Below the pieces are notes generated by a model that saw only the letters and a program-made list of their open reading frames with translations, made no database searches and was not told the DNA's origin. Below, in pieces: positions 3,911 through 61,739 of a stretch of DNA of 64,000 nucleotides. Positions within the stretch are counted from its first letter, which is position 1. Each line of letters starts with the position of its first letter. The stretch is from Psammoneis japonica (taxonomy: Eukaryota): positions 186,001 to 250,000 of the forward strand of contig QPGO01000059.1 in the NCBI GenBank assembly GCA_008632985.1, read 5' to 3'. Made by a program: the position numbers and the translations under genes.

Positions 3911-6900
3911 GTTGTACTCTAGGATCGCTCTCGATCGTCATCGTGTTAAAAAAAGTGAGTGGGTGGTGGATGCTCTTTGAGATGACCAAGAAGTTTTAGC
4001 AAGAACCTGGCGGTGTTCGACACCATGATTCCTTGGTTCATTTGCATCCATCAAGCTCCCAGAATTTGCCTGTGCAAAAAAAAAAAGCACAATCTGTTGA
4101 TGCTTGTGTTGAAGACACGGCAATCAGGTGCCATGCTGCCATTTTGTTGGTTGCTGCACATGCCAGAGTCTTGGCCTTGTCTTCAATTTCAAGACCAAGA
4201 CTGTCATGTGGGATGATGTTGCTGTCCCCCACACATCCAGAAGGATTGCAGAACCAGCATGAAACCAAAAGGATTGTTGGACCAGCGTGAAACCTCAAAT
4301 GTTGAACTCACCAACAGGGCTTAGCCTGTTTCTGTGCTGGTGCTGGCTGCCCCACATTGACAGACTTGTGCCATTTCAAGCAATGAACATGACAAGCACA
4401 ACTGTCAGAAGTTGGCATTGGGGTGCAATCATTTGTCTGAGAGTCAAAAAGATGACCCATTGGAGCCATTTGGTCAGCACCCCTGGCCCTCCAACTGAAC
4501 TGTGAGTCAAGCCTTGTTGTGCCAAAGCACACACCACACCTCAAGTTCTTTGTCCTGTTGCAAGGAAAGAAGTTGATGAGCTTGAAAACATTGGAGTCAT
4601 TGCTCAAGATGCCACTTCCAAGTGGGGCGCACCTTTTTTTGTTCTGACCAAAGAAAATTGCAGAGTTCATTTCTCAACCAACTTGCGGCACCTCAACTCA
4701 TGTCTCACATGCCATCATTGCCCAATGCCAAGCCCCAACAATGTGATTTGGAAGATCAACAGGCTCACATGCACCACCTGCTTTGATCTGAACCACAGCC
4801 ATTGCTGTTGACTGTGAGCTGAGCAAGCTTTGATCTGTCATCTTGCTGAGGGGCAAGAAGTGTTGCTGCCTTTGTCTCCCACAAGGAGCCATGCCTTCAA
4901 GCAAGAAAATCTTTCAAGCTTTCATGAACCAACACTGCTTCAGCAACTTGGGAGACACTGCTGCTTTCTTTGACAACATCCTTTTGTTTGCAAAGTCTCA
5001 ACCTTTGTTCAGCACCTTCAACAAATCAAGGTCAATCTTCAATGGCTGGGCACTGGACACTGGAGACAAGAACAACCTTTGAGCGCACATTGAAAGAACT
5101 TTTTTCACTGCTCCTGAGGTTGACTTCTTGGGTCATCATGTCACAAGGAAGGGATTCACACCTCAGAAGCAAAAGACTGTTCCTGTGCTTTGTTCTGCAT
5201 CTCTAAAAAACAGAAACCAGCTCAGATCATTCAAAGGATTTGTGGATTTCTACAAAAAATTTTGGCGCCTCTTGCAAGCTGCGTTGTCTCTCCCCAGATC
5301 AAGCTTCCATGAACTGAGGTTGAAGAACAAGCCTTCCAAGCCATTGAGAAAGGCATTGCTTGCGCCAGACATTCTTGTTGCATTTTCCAGATTTAAACAA
5401 GACTTTTTTTTCTTTCCAGTGTGTGCAACTGTCAACTTGTTGGCACCATCTTGACCCAGGTGCTTTTCAATGGCAAGTGGTCCATTGCATTCCACAGCTG
5501 CAAGTCACAGCTGTCTCAAGTGCAGTGCAGCTGTGCGCCAATGTGGGGAAGGAGCTGCTGCCTGCCATTAAGACAATGAATGCTTTTTTTCTCATGGCAT
5601 TTCACTTGGACACCAGCAAGGGCATGTCACGAATGACCACGAAAACTTGACCTTCAACAAGCTCAAGTCACAGAGCATGTCAAACATTGGCGCCCATTGT
5701 TGGAAGAGTGTGGCTGTGCTTTTGAACATCATCCTGGCAAGGACAACACCACTGCCAACTTTTTGAGAGCCATCGTCTGAGATGACCAATGTCTGCCAAC
5801 ATCTTTGAAGAAGCCGTGACTTTGGAGTTCAACTGAAAATGAGTTTCCAGTCACCTGTGACTGTGCTGCAGAGCATCAAGAAGCTGCTGGCAAGTCTCTT
5901 CAGCTCAGCAAGAAAGCCTCTTCCATGCGTGCAAACCACAAGTTTCAAAAACATCAAACCGCTCTGTTGAGTGACAAGATTGTCCTTCTGTTTGCTTTGT
6001 CTCTGGCTGTGTTGTTGCGTTGGCATCACAATTCTTTCTGCAATTTTAGAGCCAGCTGCACCCACACTGCTCTTGCTCCCCACTTCTGCACTTGGAATGT
6101 GCAAGAGCTGGTCCACCGTTTTGTCCATGAGCACCAGATTTGTCAGAAACAGAAATGCACCATGAAAAAGTGTGGCAAACAGCTGCCACCAGATGTCACA
6201 CATGAGCCATGGCAAGTTGTGCAAGCCAATCTCTTTGGCCCCTGGACATTTGCTGACATTGGTGGCATTGTCCAGTTTGTCAAGGCCATCTCTGTGATCG
6301 ACGTCGCCGATGCTTGCTGGGGATCTCAAACTGTCATCACACAGCTCCAAAACCTCCATGAGCCAAAAACATCTCATTGACCACAGATTGTGCATGGTTC
6401 TGTCATCATCTGTGATCTGAGTCAGTTGTTTGTGACAACAGATTGGAGCTCATGTGCTTGAGTTCACAGACCAGCTCAACAGAGGTGGGAAGTTGAGCTC
6501 CCAAGCCAGCAACAATTGAGAGTCCTCAAGCCAGTGCAGTTGTTGAGCACATCCACCAAGTCATCAGCAACTCCACACAATCAACAGACATTGGCTCTCA
6601 ACCTTTTGATTGCTCAACTGTTGACAGCATGCTTCAACCCGTGGTGCTGGCTCTCTGCGTGCTGGTGCTTTTGCCAGCACAATGCAGCCTTTGTGCCAGC
6701 CCCTCTGCTCACATCAGAGTGCACAATGTCACAACATCTGCATGTGTGATAAAAACACATTGCCACATTGTAAAACCCACTTGTCTGCACATGACGGTTT
6801 TTGTCATTTAGCCAATCATTGGTCTCCTGCTGTTCTTCATGTTTGAACACAGATGTTTTTTAATTTTTGTGCTCTGCCTTTTTCGCAACAACTGACAATC

Positions 6901-7554
6901 TTTAATGACAAGCCAAACATTGCAATTGCGTGCAATGCAATTTTCATCATGTAAAGTGTGCGCCAATCATTTGGTCAATGATTGTGCTCCAATTTGCCTG
7001 GTCGTCCGCATCGTCCTCTTCATTCCATGTGTCTTGTCTGCTCTCTTGCAAGAATTTCAAATGTGCCACTGCCGCGTTGGATGTTTCCTTTTCACCGTTC
7101 CAAAAAAGCCACACTGCATGTCTTGCATTTGGGTGAACATCATCGAGAGGAAGAGGTCCCTTGAAACGCCGAATTGCATCGCTGCTCCCCTCTTGATGTC
7201 GTGTCGTTGGCTTCTTTTTCTCTTTCTTCATTTTGCCCATCCTGTTTTTCTCTTCCTTCTTCATCTTGATGCCACCTGTTTTCACCGTCTCTGGCGTCTT
7301 TCCATCCGAATCATTCTTTTTCATCAATCCTGTTGCCGTCGCCTTCATTGTCTCTTGTTGTTGTTTTTTTTTCTGTTGTGTGTCACTTTGTTTTGGATCC
7401 ATGTTTCTGACTTCTCTCCATGCCATCTCTGCTTCCGAGTGTTTCTTTGTGATTGTTTGCATGCGTCACTTGAAGGCACCCACGTGTTCTTCATGTGCCT
7501 TGACGTGCATGCAGAAATCCATGTTGTTTTCCAGCACATGCACCCTTTCTCCTG

Positions 7555-8619
7555 ATGCTGTTTTGCACAATGTTTTCTTCCATCAATTCTGCACTCCGCA
7601 TTGACCTTTCCCGGTGCAATCTCACGCAGGATTTCCCTGGGAGAAGTTGCACACGCGTCTGGTGGGTTTTTGTGTTTAAAACTCCAAATCCCACCAGGTG
7701 CGCATGTGACTTCTCGCATGCACCACTCTGGCACATTTCTGCAGAAACCAGATTTTTTGGTGTTGGAACAGCAACCATGGCGCCGCGTGACCTGTCGGTC
7801 GCCTCTCTGTTGCAAGACAACAATGATTCCCACCTCGAGGAGGCCGCATTTGAATCTCTCTTTGCCAATGGTTTTGGAGTGATCAATGGCAATGAGCAGA
7901 GCTGTGTCAAAGCGAAAATCGAGACGGTGAAATCCAAGGTTCAGTTCCACCGCGATTCCACTTGTGATCCCTCTCCAAATTGGATCGCGCTTGCCTGTGT
8001 GTGGCAAAAGTCAAAGGGCAGACCTCATTTTTTTGCAGAGCCAATGGCTGTGAACTGCATTGTTGCAAAGGAACTTGGGTGCAAGAGCTTGCTGCACTTT
8101 CTTTCCACAAAAGGATGGAGCCATTCCAGTCAAGGCACCAAACATCCTCATGTGTTGGAGCATCGCCGTGCTCCCAAAGCAGAGGACATGAAAGTCGTCG
8201 GCGACAAGGCAAAATCAACAGACATTGCAACCAACATGATGGCAAAGATTTCCATGTTGTGCAAGCTTCTCCATGATCCTGGATTGTGTGACCCAAAGGG
8301 AGAGCCACTTGTCAAGCACATTGAGCTGAGAAGTTTTGAAGGGAAGGTTTTGCATTGCGCGCAATGCCTTCACATTGGTTTTTTGATTCTTCGTGACAAG
8401 ATTCCACTGCACGCACCTGAAAGGAGTGGTGATTGCGATTGTTGGCTTTGCTCCCTGTTCGGCGAATGTGACGAGACATCGACTTGCATCAATTTTTTGG
8501 AGAATTTCCTGGCTCTTGGTCACTGTGAGATGACCAAAGACGAATGCCCTGTGTCCTTCCCTGAATTCGTAAAGTCGTTGTTCCACCAACACAAAAATTC
8601 TTGGGCAAAGCCCATGTGA
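7555..8619 (+). pseudogene. Cargo ORF of the TIR element, unknown function (TpA-mutated)
   Basis: 354-aa ORF inside the TIRs, with no Tyr and excess Cys/His. The real start is probably the ATG near 7777. Confidence 0.45.
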
Positions 8620-8896
8620 CCAGCGATGCTCGATGTCGAGCGAGAACAAATGCGTGCAACACACGTCAATGAGACTCTTTTAAGATGTGTGAAAATTGAT
8701 CGTGTGGTTTCTGCCGCTGACGATTCTGGCAAAAGCAAGGCCACAAGGGATCATTTTGAGGCTATGTGGAAAGCCAGGCTTCGTGACTTTGCCGCTCAGT
8801 GCAAGAAGAAAGAAGCTGGCAATGCAATTCCATCCATTGCAAAAAATGCTCGGAAACAAAAAAATCCAAATGGCATGAATCCATCACATTGTTTGT

Positions 8897-11800
8897 TTGA
8901 TTGTTTGTCCTCCTCTTCTCATCTCCAATTCTTCCATTCTTCTTGCCACCTTTTTAGCTGCCTCCCTTTGCTCCTCAAGCCCCAGTCTCAAAAACCCCAA
9001 AGATGGCGAACCTTCTGATGTTTCTCAGAACAAATCGCTGATTCTCCAAGATGTGCCGACTCTCAAGGAACAATTTGAATGTTTCCAAACAAAGTGGTCG
9101 ACCCTCGGTGCAACTTGTCAGTCATCTCCTCCTCCGCCAGACAATTTCACAAAAGAAGAGCTTGTGAAAGTGTTTCCTGAACCATCTCCGTTTGCGATTC
9201 CGGGTGAGGTGAAGTCACAACATTCTCACCTTGTTGTCTTTGAGGAAACCCCCATTTCCGGTTCCTTTGAGGGGAGCTGTGTCAAGCACCAGTCATTCCA
9301 CAGCATCTCCGATTTCTGCTTGGTGAATCACCTCCGCAAGTTTGTGCATGGATTTGAAAACGGCGTGGCTCCCAACAATCCGACGCAAGAGTTGATGGTT
9401 GCGATCATTTGCCCAACCCAGTCAACCTCTCACGGACAAGATGCATCAGAAATGCTTTTTTGGATTGCGACTCAGTGTGTCGTCGACACTCCGTGCAGTG
9501 TTGGAACATGGCGAGCCGAACGAAAAAAGGGATGGACCAGAATGCAAGTTGCGCTGTTGGATCTGTTTTGGTTGTTGTGGCCAGAATTACGAAGTCGTGG
9601 ACGGTGAGTTGGCTGAAGCAGGACCTGCTCACAAGCCTGGTGCCATCTTTGGCAGGGACAAGTGGGAGAAGCTTCCAAAGGATGTGCAGCTGATGATGGC
9701 CTCAATCTTGGACGCTGCGCAACTCTGTGAGGACAAAATCAATCTTGTTGCTTTGAAAGAAATGCGTTCCTTCTATGACCCGCACCATGATGGTCTTTTC
9801 GTGGCTGAGCTCTGCAAGATGGTTGGAGCCAAGCATTTTAGAAAGGAAGGCATGGAAATTCAAGAGAAGTGCATCTCGTCGTCCGGCGAAAAATCCGTTA
9901 ATTCGAACACCGAGCTGCACATTGACAAAGAGGATTGTGACATGGATGGGTGCACCAAGACTGGTGCTCCTTGCTTGTCACTGCGAGACGCTGTTGGTCG
10001 CTCTTGGTCGTTGAAGGTTGTCACTGCATCCAAAGGTGATGCTGGAAACTGTGTCAGTTCGGCACATGGGCATGCCGAGCTCCGATCGCGTGTGCATGGT
10101 CATTTTGCAAAACTTGATCTGTCACATGCTGCAGAAATGATGAGACACCGTGGCCCTTGTCGTCCTCCGTCGGGCAAGCTGACCCACAGAAACATCAAAG
10201 ATTTTTTCCTTGACCCTCACTCTGTGTGGGTGGAAGAGGAAATTGGCAAGCCAAATCTTCCGTCTGACACAGTTGAATGTCCCGTTGTTGTCATGCCGAG
10301 GAAACGTCTTCCGTTTCTTGCCATCATGAAGGACTTTAATTTCTCGTGCGGTTGTTTGGCAATCATCGACAACCTTGATGAGGTTGGTGCACACAATTGC
10401 TTTCGTTGCGCCGTTGTGGCTGGGCATCAAACCAGATTCTCCCGTTTTTGCTGCTTGTTGTGCAACACAGATGCTGTGAAGCGTCCTTTTGTGGCTGGCG
10501 ATTGTGTCCTTCATTGCTTCAGAGAAGCTGCAAGGCCATTCAGCAGCATTGCGGGGGATCGCAATGACCGACGCATGCAGAGCCCGGGACTCGATTTCGA
10601 GGAGGTTCATGTGGCAGAGTGCAGGACAAAACTTGACGGTTTGATGGACTTGCTTGTTGGCGGACTGGTTGTCATCATGGGCTGGATCAATGACAATGTT
10701 GGCAAGCCAACGTTTGACCACAAGGTGATCGAGGACATGTTTAAAACCGTGGTCAAAACATGGGATCATGCGGGCGCTGATTGTGGAGAGTTCAGATGCA
10801 TGAACTCTGCACAGGTGTTGATGCTGTGTGGCACAGGGATCCATGCTCACCCTGACCTTCTTAATCTTGTCTGTCCGGCAGCCAAGTTGGGAGCGGTGAA
10901 GCAAATGGAGGAAATGAAGGTCCCGGTGGAGGAGCGCGATTTACTCTTGGAACGGACAGCGGGTGATTTTGATTTGGAAGACTGTGGAAAGAATGGCCCA
11001 GTGTCTTCACTGTGTGACCTGAGTGCAGCTCGTGAAAAGATGGGAATCTGCGATGTCTTTTGTTGTGGACAGCATCCATTGCTCTTGTTCTCTGATGGGC
11101 AATCAATGATCAAGCAGTTTGGAAGGTGTGAATGGGAGCGCCAGCCCCACTCGTGTCGATTGATGAAGTTCGAGCCGAACTGGAACGGCAAAGAGAGGTC
11201 ATTTTTTCATGGCAATCACATTTGTTTTTTGTCTGATTTTGCTGACATTGTCACATTGAATTCTCGTTCTAACAGGAAGAAGGCCGCCGGTGATTTGTTG
11301 TCATTTGCAATGAACAAAAGTGACGATTGCAAGGAGGAGTCAATTGACGAGAACACAAGCGAACTTCCAACTGCTTGCATGGGTGAAGAGGACAAAAGCG
11401 AAGAGCCTGTTGACGATGAGCACAACCAAGTTGCACATTGCTCTGAGGGTGAAGAGGACCACAGCGACTTGGGAGATTGTTTCACAAGTGACAAAACTGA
11501 CGGGGAAACACACGATGCACTGTGGTTGGGGATGACCCGTCCACTCAATGCAAGGCATCTATCTTCTCAAGAATTGTGCTCTGAGAAGGGGGTGGCCTCA
11601 GTGTCACCTGACCAACACAGGCGAGACGAGGCATGCGCAATGGCATTTGAGGAAACTGACAAAACAATCACAAACGTCGTTCCAACAGTTTCTCTCCAAG
11701 ACAGCCATCCTGATCTGCACTTAAATTGCAGTGTGAAAGCAAGAGATTTCGTCAAGAGAGTCAAGCAGCAGTTTGAGAAAATTGTTGATTTTGACAATCA

Positions 11801-12269
11801 TGGGTTCGACCAAATCATGTTGGACTGCTGCTGGATGCCAGATGGAGAGTGGCGCGATTCTCGTTTTGGGACGACTCAATTTTTCCAGAATCCAATTGAT
11901 CTTCGGGCCTTGCTCTCCAAAAACGGAGAAGGGGGGGACACAGTGATTCCCTTTGCTCTTGCAACCTTCTTCCAATTGTCGGCTGTGTTCGACATGTGCA
12001 CAATGGACAATGATGCTGCAAAGAGCCGTGCAAGCACATTCTTTGCAAGTGACCTCATGACCCAAGAACAACTAGAACGGTGGTTGGGAAAGCCTTCCGA
12101 TCAGGAAGAAGCTCATCTTGGAGTTTCAGAAGAAGACATCAGAACGAAAGCAATGGAAGGTGCTCGTGCCGCACTGCTTCACGTGTGCCACAATGACTTT
12201 GCCAATTCTGAAAGGATCAAATTCATCATGTTTGCAAGAAAGAGCCAGGAAATCACTGTGAGTGAATGA
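8897..12269 (+). pseudogene. Large multidomain cargo gene of the TIR element; possible HxD dioxygenase-like region and C-terminal SAM-methyltransferase-like domain
   Basis: Overlapping 236-aa and 956-aa ORFs (probable frameshift at about 9400-9600). Motifs LHIDKED (about 9915), ALWLGM (about 11517) and FDQIMLDCCWMP (11805-11840). Domain calls are by eye only. Confidence 0.45.
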
Positions 12270-12292
12270 CAGATTGATGCGCGCATCCCATT

Positions 12293-15200
12293 TTAGAAAC
12301 AAGTCTGACCAACACTTCCTTCTGTCCTGTGCAGCCCAAACAAATGGGGCCTTTTCTTGCACTTCTGCCACTCCTGGACATTCTTCATAAACCAAAACAT
12401 TGTCCCCAATTGCTTCGATGGGGACAACCCGCAACTCAGGTGAGTGCTGAGTCTTCTCAGGCATTGAGAGCCAGTTGTTTCATTTGTGATCAAGCTGCCA
12501 GCGACTGTCCAAGTCTGTGTGCTGATGCCATTGCCTCACAGTTCTCTGGTCAGCTTGACAAGCAGTTGGATGGACCACTGCAAAAATTGATCCTGGGTCT
12601 TCCTGTTCAAAGAAACACAGCAAACGGGAGGGAAACTGTTGGCTGCCCTTTCGTGTGCCAAAGGTCACATGGGCACAGTCATGCCATGGGCCTTCGCTTT
12701 TGTAATTGGGGTGCGCACGGTGCGCATCCCTTCCGTTTGCATTGTAAAACTCTGTCTTGCAAGTCAGATGTGTGTTTTCATCATCTTCACCAACACAATC
12801 CTCCCACTTTTCTGACATGAAGTTTGGCAACACAGGATGAACTTGGCAACGAGTGTGCAAGCTGTTCCACTCAAACGTCACAGCGCGGATCCCTCAGTTG
12901 CAGGTGAGAGTGAACACACTTCCTCCCAGCGTGTGATTGTCCATCCTGACTCTTGATGTTTCCTTTTTCCCAGTTGGCAAAATCCAACTGTCAGCTGAAA
13001 TTGTGGCGTTGAGCCTCATTTGGTCCTCCGTGCGTGACACGACCTGCTTCAGAAAACTGCCGAGGTTGCATTGTTGTGTGGCAGATGATGGCAGCTTGAA
13101 AAAGTCTTTCAAGAGACACTCCCCCAAGCCTGCGTCAAAGTTCATCGCATGTCGGCAACAATGAAGAAACGCCAGGAGATGGAGTGTTTCATGAAGCTTT
13201 TGAAACTTCCGCCCGCATCCTTCTGTTCGCGGGACGAATTGCACTGTCCGGTCAATGAGGAGACGGATTTTCTTGTTTATTTTCTGAACAGATGAGCTGG
13301 GAGTTGCGCTTGTGATGGGTGGATCGCCTGGCCTGTGCCATGCGTGGAAGACAAGAAGATCCTCGAGCAATTGAATGAATTGCCGGACGCTGCAGTTGAG
13401 TCTTTTTCCCTTGCATTTTTTCTTTTTTTGGTTGTCGTCACCATCCTCTGCCTCGCTCTCCTCTTTCTCATCCTAATTTTCGTCCCAGTCACCCTCTTTG
13501 GACTCCTCCGACCTTTCATCGTCAGAGTCCAAGTGCTCACCAGGTTGGTGGCAACTCTCAAAGTTTGCTTTGGGCATCTTGCGATTCTCTGGAACAATGG
13601 GTTCATCTGCGTCCTCGTCAAGGAAGCATGACTCACATGCGTTTCGTCCCTCGCTGGTTGACAGGAGAAGGTAGAAAACAAAAGCCATTCCAGCCCAGTG
13701 GTGAGAGTTGAGGAAGGTGAGCAACGTTGCTCCTCCTTTGAAGTTTGTTTGCAAAAAGGATGTTTTGCAAGTTGACCGGTGATTGCTGAAAATCCTTTCC
13801 ACTGTGCTGTCCACCTCACTTGCGACCACAGGTGTCATGCTGTCTACAAATGAATTGATCACCCTTTTCAAGGTGCCGTTTTCAAAGAGATGCATCATGT
13901 CGCTTGCTGTTGCAAGGGCAACGCCATGTGGTTGTGCGCCAAAGTCTGCCTCAAAAAGACAGTTGGCAGGTGCGTTGTGTTGCTCAAGGTGATGCAAGAT
14001 GCCCAACCAGTGCTTCCTTTTTCTTGGTCTGATCTGTTGTCATCGTTGGCCTCAGTTTGCACTTGTTGGAGATCCAGTCCTCAGACAAACTCACATTCAA
14101 TCCATGGGTCGTCCAGTTTGTTGAAGCCAGTGAGGCAAAAACGACAGCAATGTTGACGACAGTTGTGACCTCCGCATCGTCCGACAAGACAGTCACCACT
14201 TTTTGCATCTCCCATGATCAGAACGATCAGTGGGATTGCGTGGAGGTGTCGCATCTCATCCCCTCATCGCACGCATGTTTTCATGCCTCCTTTTCTCATG
14301 ACTTCCAAAAGTGGCTCCAAAATGACATGCAAGCAAGTGTGGCAGTCTCTTGACGAGCGTCCCTTCTCCGCCTTGCGATTGTTTGAGAAATTTTTTGCTG
14401 CAGATGACGACATCTTTTCCAAATCAGGGAGATGACCAATTGGTTTCCAGACACTCTTGTCCGACCATTTGTTGAAGGCAACATGCGCAGAGGTCATGAT
14501 CACTGGCACTCCGCAATGTGATCCCATCCCTTGTGTCCCACCAGTCTTGTCGAGGCAAATGACATTGCACTCGAGAAATTGTTTCTCCGGGTCAGTTGTC
14601 CGTTCTTCGTAACTGCGCCTGAACCACTCACCCGCCAAAAGGCACTTGTCATCCTGTCCCTTCGCTTTGCACTTCCCAAAAGGATTGTCTGGATCGGCCA
14701 CATTCTCTCTGCTGCACCACAGGTGAGGATCGAGCAAAAACAGTTCCCAAACCTTTGTGAAATCCCATCTTGGCACTGACACTCGTTTTGGCAAACCGGT
14801 TTTGAAATTTTTGGTTTCTAGAGTGACAGGAATAGACTCGCTGGGTGGAAGAGGGAAATGCTCAGTCAAGGTGCACATCAACTCTTTTCTCCTTGGCAGA
14901 ACTGTGCCAAGCTCAATGTTGCTGTTCCCAGCGTGCCTCTCAATGAAATCAACAATGCAGTTGCACAATTCCAGGGGAGCACCACGTGTGTCCATGAGCT
15001 TCTTGCACAACTCTGCGCAAGCTCCGTCAAGATTTGTCAAAGAGGGAGCAGAAGCCAAGGCCTCTTCTGCAGGAGTGTGATTCCTGATCCCCAAACGTTG
15101 ATCCTCATCGTGAACATCCTCTTCCTCCTCCATTGTCACATCCAACACTGCAGCAAAGGATTGACCACCGCCAACATCCAAATCGTTCATTGCCAAAAGT

Positions 15201-15478
15201 TCAACTCCATGCATGCTGTGGTTTGATGAAATGGAGGACATGTCATCCATTCCATGCGGAGCGTCATCCGGGGAGGGGAACAAGGGGCTGCTGCTCGGAT
15301 CACTCGTTGAAGATCTTGGGAATCTGCTGTGAGCAGATCGCCTCGGATGGGGTTCGTCATCATCAGAGGACGAAGAGGAAGAACCACCACTTTCTTTGGG
15401 TGGCCCCTCCATTGTGGCAGGAATGTCACTTTGATCTGGGATCAGATCTTGGGTTTGCAGCTCTTGGCGTGATTCCAC
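12293..15478 (-). pseudogene. Plavaka-like transposase, broken by stops and frameshifts
   Basis: Collinear motifs ICLDKTG, WKPIGHLPDL, IMGDAKSGD, SDMMHLFENG, FQKLHETLH, NFDAGLGE..LKDFFK and RAHPNYKSEGPWHD. Confidence 0.75.
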
Positions 15479-16259
15479 ATGATGACATCACTCGTGCACA
15501 GTGCGTGATGGCTTGATTCGCACGATCCACAATGCGAACGCACGATCGATTTGATGCGATCCAAATGCGAACGAATGGGGATTTTGGCAAGATTCCCCAT
15601 TTGCACGATCCCACTTTCTCTGCTCTAAACTAGCTCACAATTTTCACAACGACAAAGTCGCAACACATCTTCTTTTTCAGCACCTGGCACATGCATGGGG
15701 CACAGCAATTGGGCAACTGAGTGACTTGTTGGTGAGTGTCTCCAATGGCAGGCCATTCGCAAAAAACTTTTGCCACACCCGGGACAGAGAAGAGGGTTTC
15801 CGTCCATTGTCAATCAGACAATGTTGACAGGGCCTTCATCAAGACTCATGCTTGTCGTCCTTGTCTTGTGGATGAGAAGGGAAAAGAAGAACAACACGCA
15901 AAAAATGGCGGGAAATTGGCAAACATCACATCATCTTCCAGATTTGGATGATTCTTGTGGGCATGACGTGTCTGCATTTTAATTTTTTATCTGGCATTTA
16001 CAATGAATGTTGTGCTTTTTATTTGCTGTCAAAATGCAGGACATCATCTCCGTTGAAATGCAATGACAGCCATGTCAAAAAGCAAGTTGGACTGTTCGTT
16101 GTTGTGTGCAAACACATTTTCAAATTTCAGTGTTGCTGACAACAATTTGTGCAATGTCACAGAGAAAAACAGAGTGGCTGGCTGTCTCAACACGACCCAA
16201 ATGATGGTTGCACTGTTGAACAGCAACACTCCTCTCATCGTTGTCGTGAAAAGATCAAG

Positions 16260-17566
16260 ATGTCGTCTCCAGCACCACCAGCAAAGAAGAGAAAGAAAAA
16301 TGAGACGATCAAGCCAATGAGCCCGAGACTTCAGGCAGTGTTGAAGAGAACAGGTGCGCAGGCAGCGTGTGGTGCATTGAAATCAGAAGAAGAGAAGGTG
16401 GCCCCAGAAATGATCTCTTTCCACAGGTGAAGTTTCTCAGTCCGTCAGAATTGGCAAGCAATGGGAGCGTCTCAATGTTTGTCAAGAAACAGATTGCTGG
16501 TGGCAACATGGACACTTCAAATTGGTCAGGAACTTGGGAGGAATGGGCAAAAAAGGCGGCAAAAAGGCAAGTTGACAATCGCAGAAACACGGTGTGTTCA
16601 GCCATTGGGGCAGAGGCAATGGCCTGCAAGCCAAGTGACCAATGTGTGTGATTCGAGAGTTGTGTGCATCTCACAAGAAGATGACGGTGATGCTTTGTCT
16701 GTGCAGGCGTTGTCACCAAGGAAGAGGGAAAGGAAAAAGAAAAGAAACTCAAGGCGGCAGTCAGGAGGAAAAAGCAAGGCAGGAAAAAGTCAAGCTGTGA
16801 CAAGAATGAAAAGAAAGATGTCCCGTTTGTGCCGACATGGGATCTGTTCAGCCTGGACACTGTCGCCGGTGGCAAACGAAGGAACAAGCAGGCACACAAG
16901 TGGTTCTGTGATCACATCCTGCCTCAAACCAAGCAAAAGCAGGCATGGAGCAGCGCCATCAAAACTGGGAACGCACAGGTCTCACAGTTGTTTGCGGTTG
17001 GTGACGAAGCTTTGGCGCTGTTGGCCATGGAGAATTGTTGGCAGGTGTGGGCATGCAGGAACAAGGAGGAGGCGGTGGAAGAATTGGGTGAGGAAATGGA
17101 GCCCGAAGAAACAAGGCCTGCCCCTCGGTGCACGAAGCCAAAGAAACAACGAGTGTCTTGGGGAGACGACGGAATCAATCGGTTCAACGATTTGTGCAAA
17201 GAGGTGACGAAAGATGGAGACTCCAAGGAGGGTAAGGAGTTTGAAAAGTGGCATGCGGAGATCAAGAAAAGCGAGCACGAGAAGTCCGGAGAAGCAAAAA
17301 AGAAGAAGAAGAAAGCACCGACCGGTGACACGGATGAGGTGAAGGCAATGAACAGCCCAATGGTGGAGAGCAGCAGGGATGACAACAGCAACAACAATGA
17401 GCAGGAGGAAGGCGCAAAAGGCAAAATGAATGATGGAGGAGACGAGTCCGATGGAGACCAGTCCGATGATGATCGTCAGCTTGGTTCAAGAGAGTTGCAG
17501 CAAGAAAATGTGTGCACAGTTGACATGGCACTCGGTCATTGCACTGCAGACGTAACAAGGGATTGA
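16260..17566 (+). pseudogene. Accessory ORF of the TIR element, divergently oriented from the transposase
   Basis: Basic N-terminus (PAKKRKK), motifs GDEALALLAMENCW and SWGDDGINRFNDLCKEV, acidic tail. Split across frames. Confidence 0.55.
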
Positions 17567-18223
17567 CTTGACCGATGAAATGCTTTTCTTGTTTAAAATG
17601 ATGTTTGCGAAAATCAACAAACCAAGGATTGTGTGGCAATGCAATCACGCGTTGGCATGTGGCAACAAGGTGGGGGCAGACACAGCGATGTGGGCGCAGT
17701 GAAAAACAGCACACATGATTCTTGGCAAGTCACTGCAACATTGGTGTGGCAAACTTGCAACCAGAGGTTGGCCTGTCATTGTGTGACAATAATTTTTTGC
17801 AATGTTTCGACAAATTGTCATCATGCAAATCTGCACATTTTTGACATTTCGTGCACTCTGATGCAGCTGGTTTTTGGTCATGACACATCTGGCCAATTGG
17901 AAGTTTGTCAACAAGTGTTGCACTCAAAATGTCCTGTGCAACAACACACATGAAAATGCCGGCCACTTGCCTTGTGGCTGCAAAGCTGGCAACCAAGTTT
18001 GCACAACCACCAAGGACGACGTCCAATGCAAGCAAGTTCTTGAACCCTGAGGAGGGTCCTTTTCACATTGTTCGCAATCATGCCAATGGCACAGTCACCA
18101 TCCAGTGCTCTCCTGACGTTGCTGAATGGATGGACGTCTGTCGACTTCACCCTGTCTTCTATCTGCTGCTCTAGAGCTACCACTAGCTAGAGAGTAGAGA
18201 GCCTGCCCAGTTGGGGAAGCGAG

Positions 18224-18413: not shown

Positions 18414-18567
18414 CATGATGTAGCTCTGGAGGTCATCTTCTGTGTCCATCTCGTCTCACAAATCAAATTCGAGCATCTCTAACAATAACAACTCTACATT
18501 ATCAACTATCACTTGGCGCCATTGGGCAGTGTCATAATCGAGTTCTGAGTCATGTGATCAAGAAGCC

Positions 18568-21067: not shown

Positions 21068-22817
21068 TACCCAGGCTATCCAGCAGTTCCTCCCAGCCAG
21101 AAGAAGAAGAGAAAAGGAAAAGAAAGCAAAAAATAGCCATTGATGTAGTTTTGATACGGGGCGCTGTAGTGCCGCAGCACGCAGTGCAGACGGACGCATG
21201 CAGGTGCAGACGCGCCACGTCCCGGCGACAATTACAAGTGGTGGAGGCAGGCCGTTGAGGAACTCGGGAGCGGCAGGCAGGGTGCGTTAGGCACGTCGAA
21301 TTCGGTACGAAGTGTCATGCGTTTATTTATGCACGCAGAAGGATGTGGATCGCCAACGCCTGGAACACAGCACACAGCAGTCAGCACACCTCCATCAGTT
21401 GTTTGCACACCCTTGGAGCTGCACCCAGAATTGGGTGTGTGTTGTGCTCTCCAGAGCAAAGACCAGAGAAGGGCTGTTCATGCGAAAGCCACTGGGCAAG
21501 GACCTGTGAAAATGCAAGGTCCCAGAAAGCTGCGAAGCCTTGACAAGACTCATGAAGGAGAGAAGCGCCACCCATTTCTCTCAGCAACAATGCGCAGAAG
21601 TGTCAACGCAGTGTGCAAACACAAGATTGGGGTGCCCAACCACTGTGCAACCATCCAGCAAAACCAACCATAAAAATGCAACAATTTCGTAAAATCAAAA
21701 ATTTTGATTGGACCAGCACATTGCGCAGAAATCTGCGCACACACGTCACACAACGTCGAATGGATTTCAACCAACAAACCAAGAGTGCGTGAATGCAAAT
21801 GTTGCACAAAACGGAGCAACAGAGAAAAAAATGGATTTGCAACAACAAACAAAGAAGGCAGACGAGCCAAAGAAAACTGAAGAGGACAAGAAAAGGGTGC
21901 AGACAGATGCAGAACTGTTTCAGTCAGCAACGAACAAAGAAGACGGGGAGAAGATTGCGGCGGAAGAAGCAAGAGCGGCGTTCGAGCTTGCTTCAGGAAA
22001 TTGTGATGTCTCTCATCTGCACTTGTGCCAGACAACACGAGAGTGGACGGTTGTCATGTGGAAGCAACGGCTGTGCCCAGGGATGATTCAACCATGGAGG
22101 AGCTAAAGGCAGCGTGGGCGGCAGCACCACCACAGACTGGTGGGAGATTTTTCACCGAGGAGGAGCTGGAAGAAGCAGGAGCAATGGAGCAGGAGAAGGA
22201 GCAAGCAAGGATCCTACGGAACAAGTGTGGACAGAAATGATGGAATGGGTGCAAGTTTCAACCAACCATTCAGCAAAGACAACCGCGTCAGTGCGCAAAT
22301 TTCACACACTCAGACTTTCACTTGAGCCACCGTGGATCGAGCATGGACAGAAACAATGGAATGGGCACAAGCTGCGACCAACTGTTTGGCAAAGACAACC
22401 GCATCAACACGCAAATTTCGCACACTTTCACTTTCACTTGAGCCACCGCACCTCGAATTAGACAACATCAATGTGCACAGATGAACTCGTGAAACCTCAC
22501 AGAAGACAGAACGGTCAGAAGCAAAACAACCAGCACCGTGCACTGCTCTGGCCCCAATGCATGTTAGTCAGGTCACGTGGGTCGCGCAGAAGTGCGCACC
22601 GTGCAGGTGGCACCCTGTTTCGAAAAAACAACCATTGTGTGCTACAATTGGTTTGGACGCCCGGCGCAAAACTCACTTGACAGGTAAAAAAATGCAGCAA
22701 AATGATTGGTGCAAGCAATCATCACGCCTCTGTTTTCTGACAGTGGCGAGCGCGGCAATCCAAAATCTTTTGGTTTCAGACTTCGATGCAGAGAGTTCCA
22801 CCTGAGAGAGGAGGAAC
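21068..22817 (+). mobile_element. Insertion containing a Helitron-like helicase C-terminal fragment
   Basis: Absent from the homologous position in the third repeat unit (about 29200-29210). Encodes NWVCVVLSRAKTREGLFMRKPL, the PIF1-like motif YVxLSR with Y to C. Hairpin GTTCCACCT-GAGAG-AGGAGGAAC at the right end. Confidence 0.6.
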
Positions 22818-24270
22818 CAATTCCTCCAACAACGTTTGACTCGTCCGACTCTGTTCCTGGTTGTGCGGTGCCAAAGCATGTGCACCACATCTCAAGCTCT
22901 TTGTTCTGTTGCAAGGAAAGAAGTCAATGAGCTTGAAAACATTGGAGTCATTGCTTGAGATGCCACTTGCGATTGGCTGGGGTGCCACACCTTGTTTGTT
23001 CCTGCCAAAGAAAAATGGCAGAGCTCAACTTGTGGCACCTCGACTTCTTGTGTCTCACACGACATCCTCCTTGCCCAGCGCCAAACCCTGGTGATGTGTT
23101 TTGGAAGATCAACCTGCTCACATGCACCACTTGCTTTGATCTCAACCATGTCCATTGTTGTTTTGTGCTTGACCACAAGCTGAGCATGCTTTGTTCTGTC
23201 ATCTTGCTGCGGGGCAAGTGTGTTGCCACCTTTCTCTCTCCTCCCACAAGGAGCCATGTCCTTTTGTTTGCAAAACCACAACCTTTGTTTGGCACCTTTG
23301 ATGAATCAAGATCATCAAATGTTGGCACCCATTGCTGTTGGAAGAGCATGGCTGTGCTTTTGAACATTGTCCTGGCAAGGACAGCGCCATTGCCAACTTT
23401 TTGAGCAACCAATGGCACCATGACTGATGTCTCTCTGGCAACAATTTTGAAGAAGCCCCAAACTTTGGAGCTTTCTGAACATCAGTTTCCAGTCATCTGT
23501 GACTGCGCTGCAGAGAGCATCAAGCTGCCAACAAGTCTCCTCAGCTTTGTGAGAAAGCCCTCCATGCACACAAGCCATGAGTTGCAAAAACATCATGTCA
23601 CTCCATGGAGTGACAAGAATGTCCTTCCACTGGCTCCATTTCCAGCTGTGTTGCACTGGCATGACAGCTCTCTCTGCCATTCTGGAGCCAAGAAGAATTG
23701 CACCCACCTTGCTCTTGCCACCCACTTCTGCACTCAGAGTGTGAAAGCAAGAATCCAGTCATCTGTGACTGTGCTGCAAAGAGCCAAGCTGCTGTCAAGT
23801 CTCTTCAACTTTGTGAGAAAGCCCTCCATGTGTGCAAGCCATGAGTTTCAAAACCATCAAATTGCTCTGTGGAATGACAAGATTGTCCTTCCACTGGCTC
23901 TGTTTCCAGCTGTGTTGCACTGGTGCCACAACTCTCTCTGCCATCCTGGAGCCAATGATTGCACCCACCTTGCTCTTGCTGCCCACTTCTGCACTTGGAA
24001 TGTGCAAGAGCTGGTCTGCTGTTTCATCTGCGAGCTCCAGATTTGTCAAAAACAGAAATGCACCATGAAAAAGTGCAGCAGACTGCCGCCACCAGATGTC
24101 ACTCATGAGCTGTGTGGCAAGTCATGTTGTGTGGGCATTGACCACTTCTTTGTCAAGGCTGTCACTGTCATTGGTGTTGGCACCACTCATTGGGGATCAA
24201 ACTCTCATTGCACAGCTCCAAAACCTCGAAGAACATCTCATTGATTGAGGGTCATGCACGGTTTTGTCAT

Positions 24271-24666
24271 GACGGGTTCCAGTCCTAGGTGGGACTTTTT
24301 GTGACATTGGGCCCGTAGAATTCTACGTGCGAGCTCCGTAGTGAAATTATTAAGCAATGAATATATGAATGATCGCCAACAGAAAAAGAGGCAATTTTGC
24401 GAACGTATCTCCTCCTCCACACTTGAAGTACATTCTTTACAGTATGCCCGGGTATATTCTTTAGACATTAAAGAATATACCCAGCGCATTTTTATTGACA
24501 TAAGTGCAGATAACAGAAAGCCTTTGGCTTCGCAAAACAGGCAGTGTGGAACAATTTTTTATAATAGAACACGTAGAAATGTACGTGCGAAACATACGAC
24601 GGATGATAAAACATAATTATGTCACAGTTCAGCAGTACGAGGTCCCACCTAGAGCTGGAACACGTC
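24271..24666 (+). mobile_element. 396-bp MITE, copy A (TpA intact)
   Basis: TIRs GACGGGTTCCAGTCCTAGGTGGGAC and GTCCCACCTAGAGCTGGAACACGTC; 4-bp TSD TCAT/TCAT. Absent from Gypsy copy 1 at about 6405. Confidence 0.9.
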
Positions 24667-24893
24667 TCATCTCATCCACAGCCCAAATCAGTTGTTTGTG
24701 GCAATGGATTGGAGCTCACGTCTGAGTTCACAGACCTGCTCAACAGCCACAGAGTTGAGTCCAAGTGCCTGCAACAATTGATGGCTCAACTGTTGACAGC
24801 ATGCTTCAGCAATCTGTTGCTTGGGCCCTGTGTGCCAGCGTGAAGGCGGTGCACCAGCCATTGTGTCTGCCCCACTGCTCAGCTGGTTGCTTG

Positions 24894-25793
24894 CCAGACT
24901 CAGGCGGTGTGCACAAGAGCAAAAAAGTGCTGTTTTTGCATGAAATGCACAGCCCAAACTTGTGACACAATTGGCTGATGGCAAAAAAGCACAGACAACA
25001 ACATGTCAAGACAGGAAAACATGCAGAGAAAGGTGTTGTGCGTGTGCCTGCATCAGTGTTTCTGAAGATTTATCAGGTTCGTCATTGCGAAATGGTGCCA
25101 CAAGATGAAAGCTCAATTTTTCCTTGAGAGCAACTTGTGCTCACATCCATGCACTTGCACAAAACACACACGAGTGTTCTTTCACACAAATGCGATCATG
25201 CAACATGAATCATGCCAAACAACTCTTGTGACACAGGCTCGCAATTGTGACTCAATGGCTTTGTCTGCATGTGCGTTGAGCAATGAACTGTGTGACAGTC
25301 TGGTCAAGAAAATTGTTGGTGCCACAACGGCGTTAACTTTGGACCCTTTCATGCTGTTTTCTCAATGTCAATGACTGAGAATCCTGCACCAGTCGACAAT
25401 TGGGAAATGGCTCGCGTGACAAAGGAAAAGAGATGGTCTTCCTCAGCATCAAGCCGGGGGCAAAGCAAGGCTGGCTGTTGCCTGTGAAAGCTGCAGTCAC
25501 CATGGTGAAGTGCAAATGTGTGCCACAGACTGCAACAATTGTTTTTCATCATGCACGGCTAATTTGTCAACTGTGTCGAATGACGCGGTCCTCATGGTGC
25601 CCTTCGATTTTTTTATGAGGCCAAAAAGGGGGGCCACCATGGCTGCTGAAAGCCATGGCTGTTTTTGTTTCTGTTTTTCTTGTTCATTGGAGCTGAAGTG
25701 ATGAGCACAATGTTTGCAACTCAAACATTTTTGACATCATGAAAAGCTTTAATTTTTCGCGAAAACGGGCATGTGCGTGCCACCCAAGTCTGG
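24894..25793. mobile_element. About 900-bp non-autonomous TIR element (possibly hAT-derived)
   Basis: Imperfect TIRs CCAGACTCAGGCGGTGTGCACA and TGTGCGTGCCACCCAAGTCTGG interrupt the Gypsy integrase QLVF codons. No clean TSD. Confidence 0.6.
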
Positions 25794-26440
25794 TTTTCAG
25801 TTGTGACATGGTCATTTCCATGACGCATCTGACCAGCTGGAAATTTGTCAACAAGCATTGCACTCAAAATGTCCCATGCAACAATGCGTGTGAAAATGCC
25901 GGCCGCTTGCCCCGTGGCTCTGCAAAGTCGTCGACGAGGTCTGCTCAACCACCCCGCCCAGAGTGTCCAGCCAACGCATGTTGAGCCCTGGGGAGGGTCC
26001 TTTTCACATGATGGTGCAGTCACCATCCAGTGCTCTCCTGATGTTGCTGAACGGACCGACGTCCGTCGACCTCACCCTGTCTTCTAGCCAGAGCCTGCCC
26101 AGTTTAGTTGGAAAAGCGAGTGCCCCGTGGGGGGTGTGTGTCTGTCCGTGTGCGTGTTCTGTCCGTGTTTCCCAGTGATTTTCAGAATGTTTCTCCGTGT
26201 TTTCAATAAGTCATTTGCGTGTAATAAGTCTTTTCAATGACTTATTATGTGTCATGGTTCGGTTTCTGATCACTTCTAAGTAGGCCCTACTACGTTCTAC
26301 ATGAGTCATTCATTCTACGAGACCTGGAGATCGGTCTCACAAATTCGAGCATTTAACAGAACAACTACTACATTATCAGCTATCACTTGGCGCCATTGGG
26401 CAGTGTCACAATCGAGTTCGAATTATGTGATCAAGAAGCC

Positions 26441-59518: not shown

Positions 59519-59914
59519 GACGCGTTCCAGCTCTGGGTGGGACCTCGTGCTGCTGAAGTGTGGCATCAACAGTTTTTTGGATCGCGCTGCATGTCACACA
59601 TGCAGATGGCCAAGTGTGACATTCTACAAAATTGTTTCATGCTCCCTGTTTTGCAAAGCCAAAGCCTTTCTATTTTCAACATTTGTGAGAATGAAAATGT
59701 GCTGGGCATGTTCTTTGTTGTCTGCAGAACATGCCCGGGCAAACTGTTGATGATGTGCCACAAGTGCGTGGGAGGAGATGCGTTCATAAAATTGCCTCTT
59801 TTTCTGTTGGCAATCATTTGCATTTTCATTGCTTGACAAATTGCTGTGCAGCTTGCACGCAGAATTCTGTGGGCTAAATGTCACACGGAGTCCCACCTGG
59901 GGCTGGAGCCGGTC
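59519..59914 (-). mobile_element. 396-bp MITE, copy B (TpA-converted)
   Basis: Reverse-complement homolog of 24271-24666 with the same length and TIRs. Flanks GGTG/GGCG. Confidence 0.9.
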
Positions 59915-61630: not shown

Positions 61631-61739
61631 TTGTGGGGGGACACAATTTTCCATCACATCATTTCCACATGAAAGGGAAAATGGATGTTGTGCAGTTAAG
61701 TGCAGTTGTGTGAGCAAGGGGCAGTTGTCGTGCACAATT

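Follow-up and report, generated by a model that had tools for sequence, protein, structure and literature searches.

The window analysed here, a stretch of 64,000 nucleotides from Psammoneis japonica (contig QPGO01000059.1 of assembly GCA_008632985.1, positions 186,001 to 250,000 of the forward strand), holds tandem gene units together with blocks from which the dinucleotide TA has been almost erased (Table 1). Composition is given throughout as the observed/expected ratio (O/E) of TA and CG dinucleotides. A TA-free run at 3997-18160, bordered by gene units with a TA O/E of 0.50-0.55, contains an older host block interrupted by a transposon with terminal inverted repeats (the TIR element); a paralogue of that block, host copy 2, lies further along the window. 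The segment of about 914 bp found only in that second copy was either inserted there or deleted from copy 1, and the block that runs off the end of the window includes, besides MITE B, a dead piece of a homocysteine S-methyltransferase-type gene.

Table 1. Features of the window, with TA and CG given as O/E (observed/expected counts where available)
Feature	Position	Strand	TA	CG	Remarks
Older host block, left part (earlier label "Gypsy")	4055..6711	.	6/184.4 = 0.03	24/147.7 = 0.16	Homologous to 22743-24881
Target-site duplication CA, left copy	6710..6711	.			Single CA at the paralogue's empty site
TIR DNA transposon, dead member of a many-copy family	6712..17863	.	44/744.8 = 0.06	397/649.5 = 0.61	11,152 bp
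Left terminal inverted repeat	6712..6744	+			First 13 bases perfect
Open frame in TIR element, 957 aa	9396..12269	+			2 Tyr in 958 residues
407-aa frame in TIR element	14264..15487	-			Weak Plavaka-transposase match
Right terminal inverted repeat	17831..17863	-
Target-site duplication CA, right copy	17864..17865	.
Host block, right margin	17864..18160	.	0/18.9	0.39	Homologous to 25818-26085
Separate repeated element beside host copy 2	21329..22867	.	0.09	0.66	Depth ~2,000
Paralogous host block (copy 2)	22868..24890	.	0 (without MITE)	0.14 (without MITE)	MITE A inside
MITE A, unmutated	24271..24666	+	32/33.7 = 0.95	18/17.0 = 1.06	Duplicated target TCAT; host copy 1 has the empty site near 6407-6421
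Extra segment, ~914 bp, host copy 2 only	24891..25804	.	0.07	0.49
Right margin of host copy 2	25818..26085	.	0/12.8	0.72
Further TA-erased block	45027..46490	.	0.10	0.32
TA-erased, CG-poor block, runs off window	57032..64000	.	0.04	0.23-0.29	57032-59518: TA 0.04, CG 0.29; 59915-64000: TA 0.04, CG 0.23
MITE B, same family as MITE A, converted	59519..59914	-	0.15	0.49	Flanks GGTG / GGCG

The TIR element carries CATCAGAGTGCAC at both ends, inverted at 13 of 13 bases and imperfectly over about 30 bp, and is flanked on each side by CA, so that it has the terminal inverted repeats and target duplication of a Plavaka/KDZ-type transposon. Its 407-aa frame, itself hypermutated, scores 21.8 bits against PF18759 (cut-off 26.3; E 1.3e-4; 116 of 325 profile positions); for the 957-aa frame neither a family assignment nor relatives were found. 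Tyrosine makes up 0-0.2% of the element's ORFs and His plus Cys 8-12%, compared with 1.4-3.3% Tyr in host genes. When 8,016 contigs of one DNA sample were aligned to the window, the summed depth over the element reached 4,140-28,426 per bin, against 92-314 in bins without such repeats; it was higher at both ends of the element, and a joint running from 12550 to 15819 points to deletion derivatives within the family. The empty site is preserved in the paralogous host block at 24880/24881, where CTGCTCA/GCTGGTT corresponds to CTGCTCA, the element and then CAGCTGGTT at the filled site. The TIR element is therefore younger than the block that it interrupts, as a first-pass annotation of this DNA had proposed; the two strings which that annotation quoted from the element, TCCGATCGCG at 10081 and CGTCCTCCGTCGG at 10161, each occur once, at those positions.

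The same annotation called the host block a Gypsy element, a label that we cannot support. None of 28 ORFs of at least 60 aa from 4055-6711 and 17864-18520 matches a reverse transcriptase, RNase H or integrase family (E ≤1), and no flanking pair of LTR-like direct repeats was found, although heavy mutation could hide a Ty3/Gypsy origin. In the other TA-free blocks, none of 96 ORFs of at least 75 aa matches these three families. Transversions separate the two host copies at 72 of 1,152 aligned sites, and the flanking gene units at 127 of 2,762 (units B and C) and 96 of 1,437 (A and B); the host block thus matches the duplication in age, and the insert came later. Between the host copies 30 TG/CA sites in the 1,152 aligned bases are discordant, a number that can be fitted either with TA erasure before the duplication or without it.

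Composition separates the two dinucleotides sharply. Among the 128 windows of 500 bp, TA O/E is below 0.2 in 53, between 0.2 and 0.3 in none and at least 0.3 in 75, a bimodal distribution, whereas the CG O/E of the 53 TA-erased windows is graded (3, 7, 8, 3, 9, 6, 7, 7, 2 and 0 windows per 0.1 bin from 0 to 1.0, then 1 at 1.0-1.5). TA-erased blocks as a whole range from 0.00 to 0.15 in TA and from 0.14 to 0.72 in CG; gene DNA stands at 0.53-0.58 and 1.00-1.01. At the boundary of the TIR element CG density jumps abruptly while TA stays flat, and the contrast between element and host is strong for CG (binomial p = 3e-14) and not significant for TA (p = 0.21). As TpA falls to 0-0.1 in TA-erased DNA, CpA/TpG rises to an O/E of 1.5-2.0, and in each erased block the excess of TG+CA approximates the summed deficits of TA and CG: 207 against 219 in host copy 1, 143 against 145 in host copy 2, 517 against 620 in the TIR element, and 182 against 189 and 346 against 319 in two further TA-erased blocks. 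The compositional claims of the first-pass annotation stand with these figures: the TIR element is nearly without TA and still rich in CG, the host and 57-64 kb blocks are poor in both, MITE A keeps both, and both losses end in TG/CA.

As the probable explanation, taken as a whole, we propose that two distinct mutational processes have acted on silent diatom DNA, both ending in TG/CA. The first would be a TpA-specific A:T-to-G:C hypermutation with the signature found in mutation-accumulation lines of Bigelowiella natans; over the lifetime of these elements it would be switch-like, a block being either untouched or deprived of about 90-100% of its TA. The second would be a slower, graded decay of CpG to TpG/CpA that continues long after TA is gone, most likely the spontaneous deamination of 5-methylcytosine on methylated transposons. 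A Plavaka-like TIR element entered an older block that predates the local tandem duplication, and this copy would have lost its TA after insertion; it is now TA-erased and has lost only some 28-39% of its CG, compared with about 80-85% in the host. The nesting, the compositions, the directions of both changes, the bimodality of TA against the gradation of CG and the differing flank biases described below are established directly.

In the MITE pair the starting state is known, MITE A supplying it for MITE B. Among 31 aligned TA of MITE A, 24 have become TG/CA in MITE B, 1 is kept and 6 are otherwise changed; for 18 aligned CG the figures are 10, 6 and 2. Conversion thus reached 24 of 25 TA and 10 of 16 CG (Fisher p = 0.009). 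Taken with the compositions, this sets TA erasure apart from CpG decay and makes it the first of the two to saturate. The earlier claim had been that TA loss is separable from CpG loss and quicker; that it is separable and more complete holds for blocks, windows and the MITE pair alike, whereas "quicker" comes down to an ordering drawn from a handful of nestings, with no measured rate. MITE A itself lies untouched within the TA-erased host copy 2. It may simply be very young; its intact state inside an erased block may also mean that the TA process is episodic or element-targeted, in which case "rate" may be the wrong description.

The nesting had further been read as a clock. It gives only the order of events, since stretches of equal age span CG O/E values of 0.14-0.72: the margins of the two host copies are as old as their cores, yet they stand at 0.39 and 0.72 against 0.14-0.16, so that age by itself does not set CG O/E. 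Of the CG sites of margin 2, 8 of 11 are TG/CA in margin 1, and in the reverse direction 2 of 5. This two- to five-fold spread is an argument for the view that elapsed time is not what separates insert and host in CG, the TIR element being simply less methylated or having had fewer CG to begin with, which would leave the nesting silent on speed. The TG+CA balance of the TIR element likewise suggests a starting CG O/E nearer 0.85 than 1.0, and the nestings number only four, one of them, the 914-bp segment, of uncertain polarity. We nevertheless think this view unlikely. In all four nestings the insert is richer in CG than its host (TIR element 0.61 against 0.16 in host copy 1; MITE A 1.06 and the 914-bp segment 0.49 against 0.14 in host copy 2; MITE B 0.49 against 0.23-0.29 in the 57-64 kb block), and the MITE pair, in which the start is controlled, still shows the disparity. 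CG retention also tracks a second proxy of age, the existence of close copies: the TIR element and 21329-22867 are covered by many contigs at 80% likeness or more, and the host by about two contig-depths. Finally, among 33 listed places in the TIR element where every aligned contig differs from the window, 12 have TG/CA in the window against CG in the family, and 1 has the reverse. With at least 12 such private CG losses relative to the family majority, CpG decay of this copy evidently went on after insertion.

Those same 33 places include only 1-3 differences related to TA, which brings up the possibility that the family spread in an already TA-erased state, dead copies being moved in trans by an intact master, so that the TA-poor condition was inherited and predates the insertion. 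The large size of the family and its deletion derivatives favour such a history, as do fragments of other copies, which, where readable (a few loose ends and inserted letters), are without TA. Because the family is of high copy number and its readable copies are TA-free, the nesting bounds CG loss and not TA loss. We judge inheritance improbable, about on a par with the preceding alternative. Among 969 differing places 760 are transitions, in nearly equal classes (T>C 216, A>G 170, C>T 177, G>A 197), as would be expected from independent choices between TG and CA at ancestral TA; CG polymorphism alone should give a strong excess of C>T and G>A, an argument that takes these totals only. MITE A and MITE B show erasure in place, and, with ORFs nearly free of Tyr, an erased copy would be unable to supply its own transposase.

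A single mutator with two substrates, such as a deaminase that works efficiently on A in TpA and several-fold less well on C or 5mC in CpG, would produce one process at two speeds. Both depletions are restricted to the same blocks, CG below 0.5 coinciding with TA of at least 0.3 in just 1 of 128 windows, which lies across MITE A; log-losses stand in similar ratios in MITE B (about 3.3) and the TIR element (about 4.5); and the preprint on B. natans cites ADAT2 enzymes with editing activity on A as well as C in DNA (Mettrop et al., bioRxiv 10.64898/2026.01.13.699255). TA in mixed context also declines approximately in step with CG, from 2.21 per kb in CG-retaining blocks to 0.65 in CG-poor ones (p = 0.001). 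We give this alternative still less weight than the two before it. The flank biases are opposite: the context RTAY accounts for 31% of TA in genes and for 0 of 44 and 1 of 32 surviving TA in the TIR element and the CG-poor blocks, respectively, whereas RCGY is relatively spared, being enriched among surviving CG of the CG-poor blocks (33% against 22%, p = 0.005). CG, moreover, steps at the TIR boundary where TA is flat, TA-erased margins still hold CG at 0.39-0.72, and in the hypermutable regions of B. natans 230 of 231 mutations ran from A/T to G/C (bioRxiv 10.64898/2026.01.13.699255). That the TA-free state is an artefact of assembly or base calling, for example a modified base misread at TpA, is very improbable even though the single DNA run used may be the assembly's own source and hence not independent: contigs of run X1 agree with the TA-free host at every letter of 4002-4706 and 4678-6108 and depart from it at 1 letter in 6084-6740 and 1 in 22791-23999, the lack of Tyr in the ORFs and the TG/CA mass balance give a consistent picture, and the same signature was called from Illumina reads of the B. 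natans lines (bioRxiv 10.64898/2026.01.13.699255).

To return to two processes, TA loss is graded by its flanks: RTAY is gone, mixed contexts drop to about 10% and later to about 3%, YTAR settles at roughly one third (1.98 per kb in CG-retaining and 1.87 in CG-poor blocks, no change) and TTAA is almost immune. Outside RTAY, TA decays about as slowly as CG. Such graded dependence fits an enzyme, most simply, we suspect, a DNA adenine deaminase with a preference for 5'-TAY-3' on either strand. A more ambitious reading, which we offer tentatively and consider rather less likely than its opposite, is that diatoms possess a regulated, TpA-directed DNA adenine-editing defence that strikes newly silenced DNA in bursts, independently of cytosine methylation and at a step upstream of it. 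Fast on TAY, slow on TAR and with TTAA immune, its context-graded kinetics would form, with the slower CpG decay, a two-hand molecular clock, by which, if this were true, any insertion in a diatom genome could be dated from its own sequence.

The CpG half of the explanation resembles methylation-driven decay, in that CG goes to TG/CA in repeats only (10 of 18 sites in the MITE pair and the private losses of the TIR element), genes keep CG near 1.0, and the loss comes in degrees and grows with time, all of this seen here at the level of sequence. CpG methylation in diatoms is reported to depend on DNMT5a (Hoguin et al. 2023, PMC9998398). Deamination of 5mC alone would leave the TA loss, the Tyr-free ORFs and the size of the TG/CA excess unexplained.

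Repeat-induced point mutation (RIP) of Neurospora and other ascomycetes is a repeat-targeted process of dinucleotide-specific transitions that inactivates mobile elements and makes TpA from CpA. The likeness lies in transitions that are concentrated on repeats, specific for a dinucleotide and inactivating for mobile elements; the chemistry and polarity are opposite, TpA being destroyed here and CpA/TpG enriched, where C-to-T change at CpA in fungi yields an excess of TpA. Nor does the trigger agree. Gene units A, B and C, 76-90% identical over alignments of 1.1-1.8 kb, keep TA at 0.50-0.55, and between B and C TA is conserved at 41 of 57 sites and CG, similarly, at 42 of 55. Tandem gene units of 1.5-3 kb are thus unaffected while the dead piece of a host-type gene is hit, so that duplication sensing is not indicated. 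ADAR and ADAT enzymes share the A-to-I(G) chemistry and, according to the preprint (bioRxiv 10.64898/2026.01.13.699255), a preference for a 5' U/T neighbour; they are known to act on RNA (tRNA, dsRNA), with DNA editing reported for a few ADAT2 enzymes only.

The closest counterpart is the TpA process described in 2026 for integrated giant-virus and virophage DNA of Bigelowiella natans (Mettrop et al., bioRxiv 10.64898/2026.01.13.699255). The process itself is thus already described, and that in P. japonica bears the same signature. In the preprint, the 230 A>G/T>C mutations of the two viral regions all lie on TpA, and from its figures (211 mutations, 6,169 TpA, 3,132 generations) we compute about 1e-5 per TpA per generation. 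As there, TpA changes to TpG/CpA exclusively (24 of 31 sites in the MITE pair, with the mass balance and Tyr-poor ORFs in accord), TA depletion is coupled to CA+TG enrichment, and the process is restricted to silent, foreign DNA, genes being spared. In B. natans it is apparently not constitutive, some lines only having been affected, and the same may hold here, where an untouched MITE sits in an erased block. The host differs, a diatom (stramenopile) rather than a chlorarachniophyte, and so do the targets: in P. japonica the process has struck transposons, MITEs and a dead piece of a host gene. It has also come close to saturation there (TA O/E 0-0.1, against 0.45 in the B. natans virus region). 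For B. natans the measurement is per generation; here one window yields, from its sequence, an ordering relative to a graded CpG decay that co-occurs with TA loss, and the portion of the preprint consulted mentions neither CpG nor diatoms (0 occurrences each). What the window adds is a younger transposon set in older dead DNA, and with it a TA-erasing mutation distinct from ordinary CpG decay and finishing sooner.

Two processes have reshaped the repeats of this window, and TpA erasure (TA to TG or CA) is distinct from CpG decay (CG to TG or CA) and saturates first. The first-pass annotation had noted that the nested TIR element is nearly devoid of TA but rich in CG and that its host is poor in both, and had concluded that TA loss is separable from, and quicker than, CpG loss. 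Observed/expected (O/E) counts confirm the observation (see table); the interpretation is partly supported, since five lines of evidence mark TA loss as distinct and first to saturate, but nesting gives an order of events and not a calibrated clock. The contrast between element and host lies in CG (p = 3e-14), that in TA not being significant (p = 0.21). Across the left boundary of the element TA is flat, and CG density changes abruptly over roughly 100 bp; per kilobase, CG O/E within the element is 0.44-0.77 (last 152 bp left out).

Features of the window, with TA and CG observed/expected ratios (O/E) where counted
Feature	Position	Strand	TA O/E	CG O/E	Remark
Gene unit A	2461-4055				TA-free block after it, before unit B
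TIR element	6712-17863		0.06 (44/744.8)	0.61 (397/649.5)	
957-aa frame	9396-12269	+			open within the dead TIR element
Host 1			0.03	0.16	older DNA around the TIR element
Gene unit B	17879-21328				TA-free DNA on both sides
Segment	21329-22867		0.09	0.66	
Host 2 core			0.00	0.14	paralogous host copy
MITE A	24271-24666		0.95	1.06	unmutated copy
Extra segment of block 2 (914 bp)	24891-25804		0.07	0.49	
Gene unit C	25819-29205				preceded by TA-free block
Aconitase B	38137-40737				intron-poor gene, non-repeat DNA
Perfect tandem duplication, 83 bp	41439-41603				100% identity; gene DNA between aconitase and isocitrate dehydrogenase genes
Monomeric isocitrate dehydrogenase	42032-44407	-			intron-poor gene, non-repeat DNA
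45-kb block			0.10	0.32	
Block piece	57.0-59.5 kb		0.04	0.29	
MITE B	59519-59914	-	0.15	0.49	converted copy, within 57-64 kb block
Block piece	59.9-64 kb		0.04	0.23	
Imperfect palindrome	60416-60584				70-75% self-complementary over ~170 bp, within erased block
Homocysteine S-methyltransferase frame	60992-61669	+			within TA-erased 57-64 kb block

Scanned at 1 kb, gene DNA has a TA O/E of about 0.4-0.7 and a CG O/E of about 1.0; in four blocks (4-18 kb, 21.3-26.1 kb, 45-46.5 kb, 57-64 kb) TA O/E is 0.00-0.12 and TG/CA O/E 1.4-2.1. The distribution of TA O/E over 128 500-bp windows is bimodal (53 below 0.2, none at 0.2-0.3, 75 at 0.3 or above), and among the 53 TA-erased windows CG O/E spreads evenly from 0 to 0.9; low CG with TA kept occurs in a single one of the 128, which straddles MITE A. 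No half-erased element was found within the window. A candidate intermediate at 21068-22742 (TA 0.20) resolved into two parts, 261 bp of normal DNA with TA 0.79 and an erased element with TA 0.09, and 37501-38000 (TA 0.08, CG 1.25) was rejected as erasure because the 1-kb window 37001-38000 has a gene-like TG/CA O/E of 1.10/1.23. With MITE A as the starting state, 24 of 31 TAs became TG or CA in MITE B, leaving one survivor, as against 10 of 18 CGs, leaving six (Fisher p = 0.009). Inserts exceed their hosts in CG in all four nestings, two of which have empty sites, one a target duplication only and one an uncertain polarity. The two copies of the MITE B target duplication read GGTG and GGCG, so CpG decay followed that insertion. 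It also continued in this TIR copy after separation from its family, since 12 of the 33 listed places at which every contig differs from the window have TG or CA here against CG in the family, and one has the reverse.

Survivors of the two processes differ in their flanks (R, A or G; Y, C or T). From genes to CG-retaining erased elements to CG-poor blocks, RTAY goes from 11.6 per kb to 0 in 13.6 kb to 1 in 12.3 kb, the mixed TA class from 20.4 to 2.21 to 0.65 per kb (p = 0.001), and YTAR from 5.7 to 1.98 to 1.87 per kb. Surviving TAs across all erased blocks of the window are chiefly TTAA, TTAG/CTAA and GTAA/TTAC; TTAA, at about three quarters of its gene density, supplies 24 of 93 survivors versus 44 of 1,359 gene TAs, and ATAT, GTAC and GTAT supply 0 of 93 versus 319 of 1,359. 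In the younger elements even the most resistant TA class, with about 35% kept, has lost a larger share than CG (61-66% kept), which supports the earlier reading, and the mixed class, which falls roughly in step with CG, qualifies the statement that TA is fast. Surviving CGs of the CG-poor blocks (4055-6711, 22868-24890, 45027-46490 and 57032-64000) are enriched in RCGY and depleted in YCGR relative to genes (RCGY 33% versus 22%; 54/30/78 versus 452/491/1079; p = 0.005); those of the TIR element show no difference in flanks from genes (p = 0.34). To us the opposite flank bias of CG and TA survivors is the strongest argument that the window offers for two different chemistries. If TA erasure is indeed separate, its flank rule, by which RTAY disappears and TTAA is spared, would serve together with the reversed CG bias as a fingerprint for candidate enzymes.

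As to strand, a single-strand TAY model predicts the direction at 6 of 9 mixed-context sites of the MITE pair, a small sample, and strand-coordinated clustering of TG versus CA in 200-bp bins shows no over-dispersion (chi-square/df 0.56-1.36 in blocks versus 1.16-1.23 in genes). An internal tandem repeat of host 2 (first copy 23488-23747, second 23754-24008) has nine TG/CA-discordant sites, where the first copy always has CA and the second TG; this 0:9 split (two-sided p about 0.004; other pairs are symmetric) hints at strand-coordinated conversion. Outside TA and CG sites MITE B differs from MITE A by 12 T>C/A>G versus 3 C>T/G>A changes, and in the TIR copy, too, several of the private A>G changes are at an A with C or T next. 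Adenines outside TpA may be a weak off-target substrate of the process.

The supposition that both processes converge on TG/CA is borne out quantitatively. With gene DNA as the assumed starting point, the surplus of TG+CA matches the summed deficits of TA and CG to within about 10% in six blocks; for the TIR element and shorter pieces the two agree to within 16-29% (blocks, 207 versus 219, 143 versus 145, 182 versus 189, 346 versus 319 and 114 versus 102; TIR element, 517 versus 620). The last pair suggests that the TIR element started with a CG O/E near 0.85, in which case it has lost about 28-39% of its CG. TA makes up some 40-60% of the combined deficit in erased blocks. Diatom transposons are methylated in a DNMT5a-dependent manner, according to the accessible part of one report (PMC9998398); if TA erasure is separate and saturates early, methylation should not be taken as the only source of the TG/CA excess in diatom repeats.

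That the TIR element is necessarily younger than its host is solid. Its termini are inverted copies of CATCAGAGTGCAC (13/13 perfect, imperfect over about 30 bp), with CA on each side. Block 1 (4055-6711 and 17864-18160) and block 2 (22743-24881 and 25818-26085) are homologous; at the insertion point block 2 reads CTGCTCA directly followed by GCTGGTT, and block 1 reads CTGCTCA, the element and then CAGCTGGTT. Block 1 is the filled site and block 2 the empty one. MITE A, in turn, is flanked by a TCAT duplication, and block 1 preserves its empty site. Transversions separate the host copies at 72 of 1,152 aligned sites and the flanking gene units at 127 of 2,762 (B/C) and 96 of 1,437 (A/B), divergences which indicate that the host block already lay within the unit at duplication and that the TIR element came later. 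The name Gypsy given to the host is unsupported: no retroelement family matches any of its 28 ORFs, or any of 96 ORFs in other TA-free blocks, and a search for an LTR pair found none.

The TIR element itself yields a single Plavaka-transposase match, below threshold, and has no second copy within the window. No Pfam family matches its 957-aa frame, for which no relatives appeared at E <= 1e-5 among proteins of 526-1675 aa, and none of 32 pattern matches to it in metagenome contigs was confirmed; because in-frame stops cannot arise from TA-to-TG/CA changes, long frames outlast hypermutation and prove no function. The family is abundant: 8,016 contigs of one DNA sample matched the window, with a summed contig depth, which is not copy number, of 4,140-28,426 per bin versus 92-314 in other bins without such repeats. 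Depth at both ends (6668-7334 and 15339-18006) is several-fold above the middle, and a contig joins 12550 to 15819, a deletion-derivative joint; shorter derivatives are thus probably numerous. Contigs of the same DNA sample also bear out the lack of TA in the host, differing at 0, 0 and 1 positions along 4002-6740 and at 1 along 22791-23999. The assembly may itself derive from this sample, and the match therefore rules out an error of the consensus but falls short of independent proof.

How far nesting can date these events is limited. The few fragments available from other TIR-family copies contain no TA, and at 969 differing places the four transition classes are nearly equal (216, 170, 177 and 197), totals that would fit independent choices of TG or CA among copies. 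Given an abundant family with TA-free fragments elsewhere, nesting bounds the onset of CG loss in this copy and not the time of its TA loss; that the TA loss followed insertion is a premise we infer. CG loss is uneven at equal age, as the paralogous right margins (17864-18160 and 25818-26085) have no TA, versus 18.9 and 12.8 expected, and CG O/E values of 0.39 and 0.72. Between the host copies, 1,152 aligned bases hold 30 sites discordant for TG/CA, 26 at which CG survives in a single copy and 3 at which both copies have it; these counts fit TA erasure before and after the tandem duplication alike, within counting error. Should TA erasure be separate and early, TA state (on or off, then slow contexts) and CG retention would together give an internal order of insertions and help to date transposon bursts in diatoms.

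The process needs more than duplication to set it off. The tandem array comprises three gene units, with Kunitz domains on the + strand and an NYN-domain frame on the - strand, which are 76-90% identical and not hypermutated (TA O/E 0.50-0.55), TA and CG being equally conserved between copies. Erased DNA would also hold more than transposons, for the frame at 60992-61669, which scores 27.6 bits against the homocysteine S-methyltransferase family (cut-off 22 bits), looks like a dead fragment of an enzyme gene of host type. Among the intact genes, the isocitrate dehydrogenase has MMETSP transcripts and Thalassiosira as its closest named relatives, which we take to point to a diatom or something closely related.

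We found no description of TpA erasure in diatoms in the literature searched, the sole relevant match being a preprint on mutation-accumulation lines of Bigelowiella natans, which show the same signature (Mettrop et al., bioRxiv 10.64898/2026.01.13.699255). As described in the accessible portion of that preprint, two integrated viral regions took 231 of 302 mutations, A>G/T>C made up 230 of these, every one on TpA, and the rate there was about 6e-7 per site per generation versus 3.5e-10 elsewhere; an ADAT2-like deaminase was proposed. That portion mentions neither diatoms nor CpG, and the ordering of TpA erasure relative to CpG decay is new here. From its figures (211 mutations, 6,169 TpA, 3,132 generations) we calculate about 1e-5 per TpA per generation, a half-life of about 6e4 generations, which would make TA erasure effectively instantaneous relative to any CpG decay, in agreement with the bimodality in the window. 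If our reading is correct, a process documented so far in a rhizarian alga, by one preprint of 2026, reaches a second, ecologically dominant lineage. The two systems may also share a selectivity: only some B. natans lines were reported to be hit, and MITE A keeps all 32 of its TAs within the core of an erased block, so that here, too, the process is probably episodic or aimed at particular elements, although MITE A may simply be very young.
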